Of a stretch of DNA of 64,000 nucleotides, positions 1-10,900 are shown piece by piece. A program made the position numbers and the translations under genes. Under the pieces are notes generated by a model. It searched no databases, was not told where the DNA came from, and saw only the letters and a list, made by a program, of their open reading frames with translations. Positions within the stretch are counted from its first letter, which is position 1. The number at the start of each line of letters is the position of its first letter. The stretch spans positions 1-64,000 of the IMG/VR virus record IMGVR_UViG_3300016478_000246; one strand, 5' to 3'. This stretch comes from a virus.

Positions 1-246
1 GTATCTTTTTCATTTGGATTAACGTGATGAAAATCTAAAGAAGCTATACTTTTATTATATCCACAAATAACACATTTACCACCGAGATATTTAACTGCTT
101 CTTCTTTTACACTCTTCTTTGTTCAATATTGTATTCTAAAATACAAGATTTACATAATCCATGTGTTATTTTCTTTTTACCATTTGAATTATAAAAATCT
201 AATTCTTTATTTTTTATAATTCCACATTTTGGGCACTTTTTTTCAT
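1..246 (-). pseudogene. Frameshifted zinc-binding HNH-type endonuclease, truncated by the window edge
   Basis: Minus-strand pieces KCPKCGIIK...GLCKSC and KEEAVKYLGGKCVICGYNKSIASLDFHHVNPNEKD lie in different frames. Joining them to ATG 246 needs one base restored in each of two A-rich runs (~240, ~118). Confidence 0.6.
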
Positions 247-274
247 AATAGTAATTTAAAAGAAAGTTTTATAC

Positions 275-655
275 ATTATGGATAACTTTCAACCATCCAG
301 GATTACTCCGTAAAATAACACAGTCTATAGGGAACCGATTTTACAATATTAAAGCACGCCTATGCTACTTCTTTAATAAGGTTTACATCCTGTTAAATCA
401 GGATTGGCATCATTGTTTAAACTCGTATCAATGTTTAACGAGTACATTTGTACAAGGATTTCTCCGATTAATTATAGGTATTTTTATCCACTAGGCAAGA
501 ACGAATCTACTTAAGCCTATGAACTAATTAGTCCTACATCGTTTACCGACTCACATTTTTTAAAGTGAATACTGTTAATTCAGTGCATTTCAGGGGGTCC
601 TATTTTCCCTCCTACGATTAATTAATCACCCTGTCAATTCAGGGGTTGTATTTTT
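275..655 (-). ncRNA. Unidentified multi-hairpin structured RNA
   Basis: No ORF. At least 8 stems; mismatches on + become G-U pairs on - (e.g. UGGAUGGU/GUUAUCCA, CGGUU/GACUG, AGCAU/GUGCU). Confidence 0.45.
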
Positions 656-740
656 ATGTAAATTAAGTAGGACAAGCACAGAAAGGAGGTTTTTAAAATA
701 TGCTTATTAATTTACAAAGGAATCAATGTTTAACCTTAAA

Positions 741-890
741 TGCAAATTAAGTGTGTTGTTACACCAAAATGGGATGCATTTATCCAGCGCGCATAACCTT
801 CTATTCTGTTACCAAATAGGGTATTTCGCTTGCTGGTGGTCCATACTCCTTAGATGATGGCTACTTCCAAGCCTACATTCTTAATATGCA
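741..890 (-). ncRNA. 23S rRNA uL11-binding domain (H42 top-H43-H44) mimic with ~80-nt inserted arm
   Basis: Minus strand reads AAGAAUGUAGGCUUGGAAGUAGCCAUCAUCUAAGGAG...GUGUAACAACACACUU, colinear with 23S nt ~1053-1106, and is closed by UGCAUAUUAAG/CUUAAUUUGCA. Confidence 0.8.
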
Positions 891-892
891 AA

Positions 893-1101
893 AACAAAAC
901 TACCTTGGGAAATGTTACGACACCCTACGCATTATTTGAAGTTGGTGTTCAGATTGCAAGCTCTTAAACTCTTGCTACGATAACATCAATCAACATTTTC
1001 TCTCACTTCCCCAGTTGATTTATAGTACATTCTCTGACGCCAGACTTTCTGGATAGTTTCTTCGGGACATACTATTTGAAAACTTGATTAGTAGTTTTGT
1101 T
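893..1101 (-). ncRNA. Unidentified multi-stem RNA with predicted pseudoknot
   Basis: Perfect 11-bp terminal stem AACAAAACUAC/GUAGUUUUGUU, three internal arms, and a loop UGGGGAA complementary to UUCCCA near the 3' end. Confidence 0.55.
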
Positions 1102-1499
1102 TATTCGTTGAGTAACCTGTTTAGATGATTAATTCTTGCTTGCCTATCACCAGGGCAGAACCAATAACCTCCATAATATTTTTCTTCACCATATCTTAAT
1201 GGAGAAAAGTTGTCATTACAAGTGATATTCATTAAAGATTTAGCCTCTTTTTTAGATATATCTTTTTCATCACAAAGCACTTGAATTGTGCGGCATAATC
1301 CCACAAAACATGCATCATAATTATCTACAATCTCAATAAGCCTTTTAATAAGCTCTTTTTCTCTTTTGCTGATAGGACGAATCTTTTTAGGCTTATTAAA
1401 CCACGCAGGCATCTTTTCAAGGAGCCAGTAAGTAGCCAGTAAGACTACATATATCCCTATTAATATGGGGATAAATTCAAGTTGTTCTTGTGTTATCAT
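1101..1499 (-). CDS. Hypothetical protein, paralog 3 of a YWF..GD.Q.RI family, with N-terminal TM helix
   Basis: 132-aa ORF; shares GLC and YWFxxGDxQxRI motifs with its two neighbours; hydrophobic residues ~9-27. Confidence 0.75.
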   Translation of the reverse strand: MITQEQLEFIPILIGIYVVLLATYWLLEKMPAWFNKPKKIRPISKREKELIKRLIEIVDNYDACFVGLCRTIQVLCDEKDISKKEAKSLMNITCNDNFSPLRYGEEKYYGGYWFCPGDRQARINHLNRLLNE

Positions 1500-2676: not shown

Positions 2677-2946
2677 TTATAATGAATTTACATCGCTATT
2701 ACTCCACAAATCAGGATTGTGAGGATACTCGACATCTTTGAATAAATTCAAAAATGGCATCATGTTCTGTAACACCTGAGCTGCAAGATAATGATCGTTT
2801 TCGTCAAGAGCTCTTTTAGCCACTTCTTGCCAGTCTTTGATACACCAAAGGTGTACTATAGATAGATTGAGTTGTGCCCCAACGACACCATAACCTTCGC
2901 GCATTTCTAATAAAGGTTGCGCACCCTTCTTAACGTTTTTTGTCAT
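2677..2946 (-). CDS. Hypothetical protein
   Basis: Likely start ATG 2946 (MTKNVKK) after an A-rich leader. Confidence 0.65.
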   Translation of the reverse strand: MTKNVKKGAQPLLEMREGYGVVGAQLNLSIVHLWCIKDWQEVAKRALDENDHYLAAQVLQNMMPFLNLFKDVEYPHNPDLWSNSDVNSL

Positions 2947-3510
2947 AATGATTTGTTTTTGTGTTAGTAAATGTGTTCCCAAGGACAGAATCAACTGAGC
3001 CTTGGGTGATAATCCTGCAAGATATTTAATCTCTTACGGAGTACCAGTGGTGGTGTGCAGTAGTTATCTGCAAAACCATTGAATAATTATATTGGCCAAT
3101 ATAATCTCTTCAAGATTGATTTAACTCCGAGATACGATCTCAAGCCCACCTGTCACAGTCTAATGTCTGCGCACATTTTTGGTCAACACATAGCAACGCT
3201 TTGCTTATATGTCAACAGTAAATCTAAGGACTGTCAGGTAGTAATTTTGTCCTTAGATGATTTAGGCTTTTATAAAAAAATAGTTAATAATACCACAATT
3301 ATCTCACGATAATATGGTATTTATGCACCTTTCACTAAGCTATTGTGGTGCATGTTTAAACTCCATACAGCTCTGGAGTGTATTTAAAAGTCATCATTGC
3401 CTATCAGTTACAAAAACTACAATTCTCTGATTAGTCTCAATGACAGGCAAATCGACCTTTGATGACGGTAAACTCTGGAAATTCCCCACAATCGTGGGGA
3501 AAATCCTGGG

Positions 3511-4626: not shown

Positions 4627-4698
4627 TGCGGGATGCAGCAGTGGTAGCTGGCGAGGCTCATATCCTCGAGGTCGTCCGTTCGAGTCGGACTCCCGCAA
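4627..4698 (+). tRNA. tRNA-Met (CAT)
   Basis: TGCGGGA/TCCCGCA acceptor stem, CGAGG-CTCATAT-CCTCG anticodon arm, TTCGAGT T-loop; CCA not encoded. Confidence 0.9.
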
Positions 4699-4832
4699 CA
4701 ATAGCCCTAAGTACACGGGAACGAAAAGCGCGAAGGCATAACATTGGCTCTGCTTACTTGTCGTCCGAATCGTATGTCGGCACAGTTTTTTATAGGTTTC
4801 TGGAGGCGTTGACAAAAAACCTATTACATTTT

Positions 4833-4904
4833 GCCCCCTTAGCTCAATGGTGGAGCTTTCGCTTTGTAAGCGAGGGGTTGCTGGTTCGAGTCCGGCAGGG
4901 GGCT
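4833..4904 (+). tRNA. tRNA-Thr (TGT)
   Basis: GCCCCCT/AGGGGGC acceptor stem, TCGC-TTTGTAA-GCGA anticodon arm, TTCGAGT T-loop. Confidence 0.9.
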
Positions 4905-4922
4905 CAAAATTAAATTTATTAT

Positions 4923-7927: not shown

Positions 7928-10900
7928 ATGTGGGAATTTAATGAATATCAAACTCAGCTTACTGACAAAGTATTAGCCAGTCTTAATGATGAAGAGTTGG
8001 CTGAGCTTGAAGACGTCCTGACAAACGTTGAGTTTGTTAAAAGACTTGTCAGTAAGGATCGTAAGCGGGCTAAGGATTTAGATAGGGATTCCTCAGGAAG
8101 GATTATTGTCGACTTGTCAAATCCACACATTCTTGAAGATATGGATTATTTTAGGGAGTCGGCCATACACTTCCAAAAGTATGGATGCTATACAAAGCTC
8201 ATGCCAAACCCAAACCCACAGTCTGAATATGGGCAATGGCTAAAGCGTGAGGTTCGGAGAATATGGCAGGGGATGGTTAGGCCTTCTGATGGTGAGTGGA
8301 TACCGGGGGATATGTACTTTTACTTAAACTACTTCCCAATCGTCCAGACCAAGATTAAGAAAGGCACTAAGATTGGTGAACGCGTCACTGACCTGCCAGA
8401 GGTGTGGGAGGGGGTGTATTGGAGATTTCATTATATGCATCAAGCCAGGTTCGGAGGCCTTTATGATGACTTCAAGGGCGCACATCATGGTTGTGAGATT
8501 GCAAGACGCGGGGCAAGTAAGAGTTATTCGCTTGGGGCTGTACTGACAAAGACATTTTTGCTTGGAGAGAACGAGCTATCAAGGGCTAAAGTTAAAAGCT
8601 TAGCACTCGCATATCAAAAAGAATACTTGATTAAGGATGGTCTTATAAACAAATTTGTTGACGGACTGACGCATTGCGCTAAATACACGCAGTTTCCATC
8701 AAACAGGATTAAGAGTTCATGGACTGACATGCACTGGGTATTGGGTTTTAAGAACGATGATGATGATGACGATGGCCTGCTTAACGAGATGATTGGTGTT
8801 GCCATCAAAGATAACTCCGACAAAGCCCGTGGTAAGCGTAGTAGCAAGGTGTTTTATGAAGAGTTTGGTATGTTTCCAGGATTTCTTGACCTATGGCAGA
8901 CATCATTACCAAACGTCCAGGAGGGCGAGATTGTATTTGGTCAGGCATATAGTATTGGCACAGGGGGAACGGAGGGCTGCTTGACAGCCGGGAATCAAGT
9001 GATAACTGGAGATGGAAGAAGCATAGATATAAAAAATTTAAGAATCAATGACACGATAGTTGGGTATGACGTTAAATCCAAATCAATAGTTATTGAAGAT
9101 GTTAAATATTTAAATGTAACACCCGGCGTCAAATGCGTTCGGATAGAAACTTCTAATGGACGCAAGATAGAGTGCACAAGAAATCATCCAATATACTCAA
9201 GTAATAAATCCGATTGCAATGAAAGAAGGATTTTTCAGTGGATAGAATCTTCAGATCTAAAGGTTGGCGACTTAATCACCGTACCATCATCTATACCTTA
9301 TTTTGGCGACAAGAGCATATGGGATCCAAGGGCTGTTGGCCTGCTTATTGGCGATGGAAGTTACGGAGAAAAACAGAATGTAAGAATATGTTCTTGTGAT
9401 CATGAAATAATAGATTATTTTGAAAAGAATTATAAAACCACGACGCAAAATTCTTATTTAACTAAAGATGGAAAAGGGTTCAAGACTATAACAATAAAAG
9501 GAGTAAGAGATAAGTTGAGAGAAGTTGGCATATATGGGCAAACAAAAAATAACAAAAGACTCCCGCCAAATTATGGTAGTTTAAACAAGAACGACCTAAG
9601 GCTAATCATTGCTGGATTATTTGACACGGATGGTAATGTAAATGTGTCTTTAAACAAAAAAAGAGGGACGTATTCTCCGGTAATATCATTATCATCGGCA
9701 TACAAAGAACTCCTTGTCGAAGTTTTGCTTGTGCTGCAAAAATTTGGAATTCATGCAAACATACAGACAAAAAAACCAAATTTAAATAAAAAATCCGGCA
9801 TAATCGATAAAAGCAATTACTATTCTCTTGAAATATCTGATGTTGATAGTATAATAAACTTTTATAAAGAAATTCCATTACTTATTGGGTATAAAATTGA
9901 GGCGTTAAAGTTTGCATATGAAAAAGCATTGTTCAAAAAATCATTAAGGAGAAATAAAGAATTCTATTATGAAAAAATTATATCAATAGAAGATGCTGGA
10001 GAAAAAGACATATACAATCTAACAACGTCTGGTACTCATACTTATTTAGCTAATGGGATAATAACTCACAACTCGGACTTTAGCGGAGCTCTTGAAATGA
10101 TTAATTATCCGTCAGGATATAATGTGTATTCGCTTCCAAATGTTTATGATAGGGGGTCTGATGGTTCTAAAAGAACAATATTTTTCTTTCCTGGCTATGT
10201 AAACTCTAAAGGTTATTATAATAAAGATGGCGTTTCTGATGTCGTTGGAGCACTAATGTCTGAGATAAAATTTAGGGTGGTTCTTAAATACAACTCATCA
10301 GATCCAATGCAGTTGACCAGGCGTAAGGCTGAGACAGCGTTCACCTTGCAGGATGCTATTATGAGAAGCTCCGGTACTGCTTATCCAGCAGACATGCTTA
10401 ATGACCGGATTAATGAGTTAAATCTTGACCCTAAATATCCAGATAGCATGTGGATTGGCAGATTGTCAATGAATAACGAGGGCAATGTTGAATATAAGGT
10501 AACTCCTGAGTTAAAATACATCACTGAATTTCCACACAAAGATAATAAGAAGAGAGCCGCTATATGTATCAAAGAGCAGCCAAAGAAAGACTCTGCTGGT
10601 AAAATACCTTGGGGAAGATATATAGCCGGGGCGGATGTGTTAATTAGCACCTTTTAGTAGTAATGCTAATCGAATAAGTGGGCAAAATCGAAGAAGGTCT
10701 GGGAGCAACCAGAAAACATCGAGGTAACTTGCAGATTAAAGATCTACAAGAACTGTAACGCATAGTGGATGAAACTGATTATTCAGAATATAATTCCACC
10801 AAGAGTGTCCGCCATCCAGAAATGGATGATGATATATGCTGAGCTGGTCCGAATTGACGGAAGTATTCGCATCATGGAGCGATGCGATATGAGGGCGACC

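Follow-up and report, generated by a model that had tools for sequence, protein, structure and literature searches.

Positions 250-1101 of the virus record IMGVR_UViG_3300016478_000246, together with the adjoining bases, hold a row of at least three, and most likely four, structured-RNA genes, which represent two uncatalogued families and one orphan. The window analysed here is the first 64 kb of this record of 98,352 base pairs (bp), which derives from a freshwater sample; sequencing runs of aquatic and wastewater origin contain close relatives. The portal protein shares 55-58% identity with the portals of cr108_1, DAC15 and other Crassvirales, and the virus is therefore a crAss-like phage. 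With a probability of roughly two in three, the locus comprises four independent genes for non-coding RNAs, arrayed on the minus strand: the orphan unit A, unit B, which copies the GTPase-associated centre (GAC) of 23S rRNA, and C1 and C2, two units of a type found in Cellulophaga phage phi14:2. That the units exist and adopt conserved folds is shown, as is their behaviour as separate modules that move, are duplicated and are exchanged, while any action on translation or defence is something that we infer from unit B alone. A sequence-only reading of the window had proposed a gene-free stretch of about 850 nucleotides (nt) bearing RNA modules on the strand of the small orphan genes. Both points hold: no open reading frame (ORF) in 250-1101 exceeds 45 amino acids (aa) under translation table 11, and the neighbouring genes lie on the minus strand. 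Alternative codes, with TAG read as glutamine (no ORF above 62 aa) or TGA as tryptophan (none above 56 aa), were rejected for this stretch, as the ORFs are not longer.

A blastn comparison of the stretch with 20 related crAss records first pointed to unit B. The GAC, formed by the tip of helices H42, H43 and H44, binds the ribosomal protein uL11 and the antibiotic thiostrepton. Read on the minus strand from 881 to 847, unit B matches positions 1054-1088 of Escherichia coli 23S rRNA at 29 of 35 positions (blastn against rrlH, 37.4 bits, E 1e-5); this is the best rrlH match of the whole region, and the best of 200 shuffles scored 26.5 bits. The earlier proposal that one unit mimics rRNA is thus borne out. 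The 3' part, from 764 to 747, continues at 23S positions 1091-1108, and the predicted fold gives an architecture that matches the rRNA alignment. In the terminal stem, rRNA 1051-1055/1104-1108, unit B has other bases, which are again complementary, and the tertiary triple 1072.(1092-1099) is present in its U.U-A form, with A1095 retained. Unit B accordingly shares the helices of the GAC and their order; unlike the rRNA domain, it is a stand-alone phage gene of 150 nt with an insert of 81 nt, and the rest of 23S rRNA is absent, since only the 58-nt domain matches, other matches remain at noise level and no large-subunit model of Rfam is hit. Variation among close relatives follows the fold as well. 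The change U886>A turns the sole mismatch of the closing stem into a pair, and in the insert hairpin of a relative, known from an RNA-library contig, both bases of the pairs 798-820 and 802-818 have changed in a compensatory way.

Relatives of unit B were collected by running a 17-nt pattern from the H43-like hairpin on IMG/VR, which gave 47 places. The extended GAC sequence and an H44-like motif, 135-411 nt past the start of the H43 pattern, accompany it in 35 of them, and four more have the H43 context alone, where a contig end intervenes or the H44 motif is variant. From this family, 32 distinct sequences, the window's own included, were used for covariation analysis. The closing stem directly flanks both halves of the GAC, and its sequence varies between members while pairing is kept: 76% of cells are paired, compared with 50% when partners are shuffled (maximum 59% in 1000 trials), and four to six pair types occur at most positions. 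Pairs 1058-1080 and 1062-1076 are formed in all 32 sequences, with four and two pair types, respectively. All 32 have G1067, where E. coli has A, together with A1095 and the U.U-A/G form of the triple.

Members differ in the insert at 1089/1090, which measures 81 nt in unit B and 91-369 nt in the others. Long members carry a sarcin-ricin-type hairpin there. No match to its 14-nt loop sequence was found in the window within three mismatches, and visual inspection did not reveal the hairpin in several other short members, which means that part of the family does without it. With this phage RNA family of GAC plus sarcin-ricin type (L097-L143), unit B has in common the GAC halves, a closing stem that covaries and the site of the insert; it differs in being the shortest member seen here, without the sarcin-ricin hairpin and outside any tRNA array. 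In most other phages the relative of unit B lies inside a tRNA array, on the tRNA strand and sometimes only a few bases from the flanking tRNAs, whereas unit B stands among small protein genes, as do its counterparts in the crAss relatives G011, G014 and G018. Rfam has no family that matches the short or the long form of this RNA, and neither the unit B family nor the C family was found in Rfam 15 or in the searchable literature.

The GAC pattern was also run on cellular genomes, where it gave at least 120 loci; among the matches listed, four of 120 loci showed a GAC-like context and the remainder look like chance. Additionally, three contigs assigned to bacteria (L318, L325 and L339) carry the G1067 and U1072 signature with H43 and H44 contiguous and no insert; these could be mimics that lack the insert or genuine 23S genes of an unusual kind.

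A copy of an rRNA site next to protein genes could also be read as a cis-acting element, with the units being parts of mRNA and unit B an operator that lets a GAC-binding protein control how neighbouring genes are translated or how stable their mRNAs are. The mRNAs of ribosomal-protein operons carry mimics of rRNA sites through which they are regulated, such as the L10 leader (Rfam RF00557), and unit A begins exactly at the stop codon of the upstream 132-aa ORF. This explanation is nevertheless very unlikely, given that a PF00298 search revealed no ribosomal-protein gene in the phage, the neighbouring genes belong to no known family, the leader families of Rfam do not match, and elsewhere the RNA of unit B sits between tRNA genes with no ORF to regulate.

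For the second family, internal repeats gave the first hint of a duplication into C1 and C2, and the 17-nt hairpin CCUGAAUUGACAGGGUG led to contigs that share an ordered series of blocks with the window. In order, these are a hairpin with the loop UAAACAUUGA, a long helix ending in ACAUAAA.AUAC, the CCUGAAUUGACAGG hairpin, ACGGAGUAAUCC and CAACACAAAUGAGU. Blocks 1 to 4 are present in C1 (block 4 at 10 of 12 positions), and C2 has blocks 1, 3 and 4, followed by block 5 beyond an HNH endonuclease gene. Blastn matches of C1 were obtained with L168 (E 5e-9 and 8e-7), L263 (8e-7), L266 (3e-6) and phi14:2, in the latter at 2912-2941 and 3018-3058 (E 4e-4 and 1e-4); phi14:2 gives three collinear matches in all (1e-4, 4e-4 and 0.007). 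Of C2, 60 nt match L245 at 82% identity (E 3.5e-11), and the ACGGAGUAAUCC block has a match in L263. The 3' block of C2, CAACACAAAUGAGUGCUAAGC, about 130 nt past the HNH gene, agrees with phi14:2 3185-3205 and with L263 at 19 of 21 positions. Between members the stems change while pairing is kept, as AGG/CCU and UCG/CGA in the first hairpin, GUGAAU/AUUCAC, GUAAAUUAA/UUAAUUUAC and UAUAAAU/AUUUAUA in the long helix, and CCUG/CAGG and CUUG/CAAG in the third hairpin. A 3' domain (CUACGUGACCCUACUCUUAUUAG ... GCUAAUAAGAAAGAGGGUGCUAA) is present in phi14:2 and L263 and is absent past block 5 here, as in the short form L245. A search of Rfam gave no match for this family.

In phi14:2 the family copy at 2910-3370 corresponds to the g004-g005 junction. 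Drobysheva et al. report that its transcription exceeds that of most protein genes as early as the first time point and does not fall off afterwards, and they assign it no function; the small-gene arm that contains it is read by an injected virion RNA polymerase (bioRxiv 10.1101/2020.03.07.982082). An abundant transcript during infection is known for this member of the family alone. The blocks of this 'long non-coding RNA' appear in unchanged order in C1 and C2, whose position in the small-gene arm of a crAss-like phage is comparable too. They differ from it in being two tandem short forms without the 3' domain, the second of which is split by the HNH gene. The neighbouring phi14:2 junction, g005-g006, resembles transfer-messenger RNA (tmRNA) by its end sequences, whereas ARAGORN found no tmRNA in the 74 kb scanned here (the window and L002, at the record end). 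L271 3911-4601 represents this second highly transcribed 'long non-coding' junction, with the tmRNA-like ends GGGGUCGACUGG ... GGGGGUUCGAAUCCCCCCGACUCCAC.

Two further sets of matches were rejected. Matches of the UAAACAUUGA hairpin pattern in IMG/VR lacked the hairpin context and are attributed to chance, and a recurrent 19-nt match to 647-665 in crAss relatives lies a few kb upstream of the portal gene; as it is not syntenic and has an E of about 0.7 in each case, it was treated as unrelated. Within C1, the sigma-70-like promoter match follows a AGGCTTAAGT block, which recurs in the corresponding gaps of related crAss phages, cr108_1 and cr111_1 among them (L091, L094 and L095). Such sites are no more numerous in the region than in shuffles, and the motif pair occurs once in the window.

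The sequence to the left of the window, to which the sequence-only reading had drawn attention, does belong to the locus. C2 continues past position 250, through the HNH gene and across the junction of the record, which is a circular permutation; the HNH gene itself begins near 246, leaves the record at position 1 and ends in the last bases of the record. Its DNA matches annotated HNH endonuclease genes of other phages, and the CxxC...CxxC and HH..N...CANCH motifs lie in two frames, with the ATG in a third. One frame break falls in a run of seven A at about 236-242, which leaves the ATG out of frame with the first zinc-finger motif, and another precedes the HNH core. With at least two frame breaks, the gene is considered decayed; the breaks could reflect a dead homing endonuclease or homopolymer errors of assembly. 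A homing-endonuclease gene inserted in a non-coding RNA gene is unusual. A mobile intron-like element around the HNH gene would account for the non-coding DNA on both of its sides. This is extremely unlikely, because the Intron_gpI model (E up to 10) and the group II models match neither side, apart from the C2 RNA itself there is no sign of an interrupted exon, whether of protein or RNA, and the flanking blocks belong to an RNA family that normally has no ORF, around a gene that is itself decayed.

Unit A is a candidate only. A perfect 12-nt inverted repeat, 892-903 and 1091-1102, closes it, and 13 pairs form in the fold, whose z-score against shuffles is only -1.1. In runs X2, X5 and X18, close relatives span unit A with about 90-95% identity. 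Those of X2 and X5 have an unrelated 20-nt hairpin in place of the hairpin 1022-1076, as would be expected for a structured RNA with a variable stem-loop. Most variants of the relatives fall in loops of the predicted fold, three break pairs, and no covariation signal emerges. Searches of 1.9 Mb of related phage loci, of Rfam and of JGI contigs gave no homologue: a 20-mer of unit A has two matches in JGI metagenome contigs, both in unrelated coding DNA, and a seeming match in the closest complete relative (G001) lies inside a coding gene. With regard to the stems, the earlier description of two 11-bp stems 2 nt apart holds in part. The closing stem of unit B spans 11 positions and begins 1-2 nt past the end of the unit A stem, while the latter has 13 bp and the former includes one U.U.

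The separateness of the units is visible in close relatives. In one contig each, A is followed by 174 unrelated nt and then C, B is joined straight to C2 with C1 skipped, and 311-620 is replaced by 106 nt; units A and C are otherwise kept at 90-99% identity. Farther away, the C-family signature was sought in 25 records, nearly all of which have a relative of unit B, and 24 lack it, so the two families are independent. Conversely, phi14:2, L245, L263 and L266 have the C family with no B nearby, and in the human-gut phages cr108_1 and cr111_1 the syntenic gap holds other small hairpin units and no B insert. The units are therefore linked in close relatives, if loosely, and not linked in distant phages. 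The earlier expectation that modules would keep company in relatives is upheld only for this loose co-occurrence, as distant phages carry B and C apart. Likewise, the three proposed modules prove to be a row of separate structured RNAs, four rather than three, the third being the tandem of C1 and C2.

These observations also bear on whether the locus encodes a single composite RNA, about 1 kb long and with cooperating domains, similar to GOLLD and ROOL. The units do abut, with gaps of 1-3 nt, and the two families share at least one building block, as the CCUGAAUUGACAGGGUG hairpin at 627-643 recurs at 17 of 17 positions inside the GAC-mimic insert of L111 (IMGVR_UViG_3300020180_000017, 8444-8460), perhaps as a common protein-binding site. 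Yet units occur alone elsewhere, B relatives are directly flanked by tRNAs, and B and C occur without each other in the phages and records just named. Single units are dropped or swapped in close relatives, and no GOLLD or ROOL match appears at E up to 10 in a search that does detect GOLLD in L266. The composite RNA is thus quite improbable; since the families are independent and merely collected here, separate molecules are favoured over one large RNA.

A more sceptical possibility is that only unit B is a working RNA and the rest is decaying or regulatory DNA, composed of duplicate remnants, promoters and a dead homing-endonuclease insertion. The broken HNH gene splits C2, in which the joining helix is not evident; C1 is without the 3' blocks of full-length members; unit A is without relatives; and the promoter-like site inside C1 and the weak fold z-scores point in the same direction. 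Set against this, C1 and C2 have preserved their family blocks well, a distant contig agreeing with them at up to 97% over 31 nt, short forms without the 3' domain exist elsewhere (L245), and relatives that hold A and C at high identity replace hairpins by hairpins. We consider this possibility unlikely.

Several points weigh against the array of four RNA genes. Fold energies are not clearly better than those of shuffles, with z-scores of -1.2 for the whole region and -2.1, -1.1 and -1.5 for its parts. Thermodynamic stability alone is not above chance, and the case therefore rests on homology and covariation. The idea of a cassette of separately working RNAs is supported by the independent modules that are swapped or deleted in close relatives. 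Unit A has no homologues beyond close strains and no covariation, and several variants break its predicted pairs. C2 may have been inactivated by the HNH insertion, and the helix that joins both halves in other members was not found in it. Contigs from RNA libraries cover parts of the stretch, although they may reflect DNA carry-over and give neither ends nor strand; parts left uncovered by these libraries were given no evidential weight. The stretch is without tRNAs. Finally, the phage encodes no uL11 and no TROVE protein.

On the array reading, the units would be transcribed together with the flanking small genes, possibly with a second start at the internal sigma-70-like site, read from 498 to 471. 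The RNAs would then be trimmed to their closing stems and persist as stable units, which would parallel the release of unit B's RNA from tRNA arrays in other phages; its relatives lie in such arrays, often abutting tRNAs, which fits release from a longer precursor. Phage tRNA arrays are polycistronic precursors cut by RNase P and RNase Z. The locus resembles them in its abutting, independently folded and exchangeable RNA units on one strand, and relatives of unit B are literally array members. It differs in having neither a tRNA nor a tRNA-like end, and thus none of the known processing signals.

Unit B would probably work off the ribosome, as a decoy for a protein that recognizes the uL11 domain of rRNA. 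This protein would most simply be free uL11, with a host factor or a defence toxin that docks there as the alternative. Searches for uL11 (PF00298) and TROVE/Ro genes in the phage found none, and any partner would therefore be host-derived or an unrecognized phage protein. The L10 leader and the phage pseudo-ToxI antitoxin RNA share with unit B the idea of an RNA that copies a cellular site to capture its protein. Here there is no known regulated gene or toxin partner and no sequence relation, and the comparison is an analogy of mechanism only. A bolder proposal, which is possible but doubtful, is a co-expressed early toolkit of ribosome-directed decoy RNAs, in which unit B captures uL11, a host factor or a toxin and the phi14:2-type units act on a related ribosome-rescue step; it appeals to the apparent position of phi14:2-type units beside tmRNA genes in other phages. 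In that event, stringent signalling or rRNA-targeted abortive infection, as translation-linked host responses, would be blunted, and a member without the sarcin-ricin hairpin would mark the GAC half alone as the working core of the family.

Whatever its partner, unit B is the smallest GTPase-centre mimic seen so far, and a mimic without the sarcin-ricin hairpin narrows the basis of the family's common function. It is a convenient construct for binding and structural work. As it adjoins a family with a cultured and transcriptome-characterized member, phi14:2, part of the cassette is experimentally testable. CrAss-like phages are among the most abundant virus groups in guts and waters, and their small-gene arm seems to gather exchangeable genes for structured RNAs whose families are present in no catalogue. 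The features of the locus are compiled in Table 1.

Table 1. Features of the probable RNA gene array and its surroundings (window coordinates unless L002 is given)
Feature	Position	Strand	Basis or remark
Upstream orphan gene, 132 aa	1101..1499	-	ORF list; sets strand and 5' limit of RNA array
Unit A, orphan structured-RNA candidate	892..1102	-	13-bp closing stem, 1090-1102 with 892-904
Unit B, free-standing copy of 23S GAC (E. coli 1051-1108), 150 nt	741..890	-	blastn, fold, covariation
Unit B closing stem	880-890/741-751	-	11 positions: 10 pairs and one U.U
Unit B H43-like hairpin, loop UUGGAAGU	854-878	-	fold and pattern
Unit B insert, 81-nt hairpin domain	765-846	-	at rRNA position 1089/1090
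Unit B H44-like hairpin GUGUAACAAC	753-764	-	downstream of H43-like hairpin
Unit C1, first of two tandem phi14:2-type members	442..737	-	collinear blastn matches, paired stems
C1 hairpin, loop UAAACAUUGA	712-735	-	family block 1
C1 long helix	~645-709	-	family block 2
C1 CCUGAAUUGACAGG hairpin	627-643	-	family block 3
C1 UCGGAGAAAUCC block, after variable part	455-466	-	
Sigma-70-like promoter match (TTGCCT, 16 nt, TATAAT)	471..498	-	inside C1; consensus score 10/12
Unit C2, 5' part	270..441	-	tandem second member; ends beyond window
C2 hairpin, loop UAAACAUUGA as in C1	415-437	-	
C2 CCUGAUUUAACAGG hairpin	387-401	-	
C2 ACGGAGUAAUCCUGG block, after variable part	296-310	-	
Decayed HNH endonuclease gene, 5' part	1..246	-	in variable middle of C2; continues at record end (L002 ~9896-10000)
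C2 3' block CAACACAAAUGAGUGCUAAGC	L002 ~9750-9770	-	beyond HNH gene, at other record end

From about 4000 down to position 1, and at the record end, the genes are all small, on the minus strand and without known family. The upstream 132-aa gene is one of three paralogous small orphan genes at 1101-2050 (132, 100 and 100 aa), whose C-termini all carry the motif YWF.PGD.Q.RI..L; these fall into no family of Pfam or PHROGs, and IMG/VR contains no relatives of them. Pfam gave no match for ten neighbouring ORFs, and a search for relatives through neighbouring proteins in IMG/VR was equally unproductive. The GC content rises slightly, to 33-38% in 250-1101 from 25-32% in the flanks. Rfam 15, searched at gathering thresholds and at E up to 10, has no family that matches 250-1101; run also on the record end, a long GAC member and the C-family loci, it returned only tRNA, tmRNA and GOLLD, all elsewhere. 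There are no tRNAs in 250-1101, the nearest lying at 4627-4905 on the opposite strand, and ARAGORN found no standard tRNA or tmRNA in L002.

Other likenesses to rRNA were examined and rejected. The matches next in rank, to 23S 1024-1039 and to pieces near 1923-1953, are at shuffle level; so are the likeness between the CCUGAAUUGACAGG hairpin and 16S 914-930 and the anti-Shine-Dalgarno-like ACCUCCUUUCU at 681-691, the last of which is also altered in one relative. The earlier suggestion that the remaining units mimic other host RNAs is not supported, in that the remainder of 250-1101 and the C-family blocks do not rise above shuffles against E. coli 16S and 23S rRNA and match nothing in Rfam; the comparison covered these two E. 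coli rRNAs, and host-specific RNAs of a Bacteroidota host lie outside its scope. On the plus strand, within 681-750, a strong Shine-Dalgarno-like AAAGGAGG stands 9 nt before the ATG of a 16-codon ORF, and its complement resembles the 3' end of 16S rRNA; as this stretch is altered in one close relative, it was taken as chance.

The syntenic gene-free gaps of human-gut crAss phages, L094 1605-2287 (cr108_1), L095 2291-2878 (cr111_1) and L091 1250-1902, contain repeated small units that, like the features that follow, are unannotated. These gaps have a conserved AGGCUUAAGU block and an 11-bp hairpin, GACUAUAGGAG/CUCCUAUAGUC. They also contain terminator-like hairpins in which the loop AAUGACUURGUAARGA is kept while the stems vary (UCUCCUC/GAGGAGA, CCUAUUC/GAAUAGG and CCUACUC/GAGUAGG).

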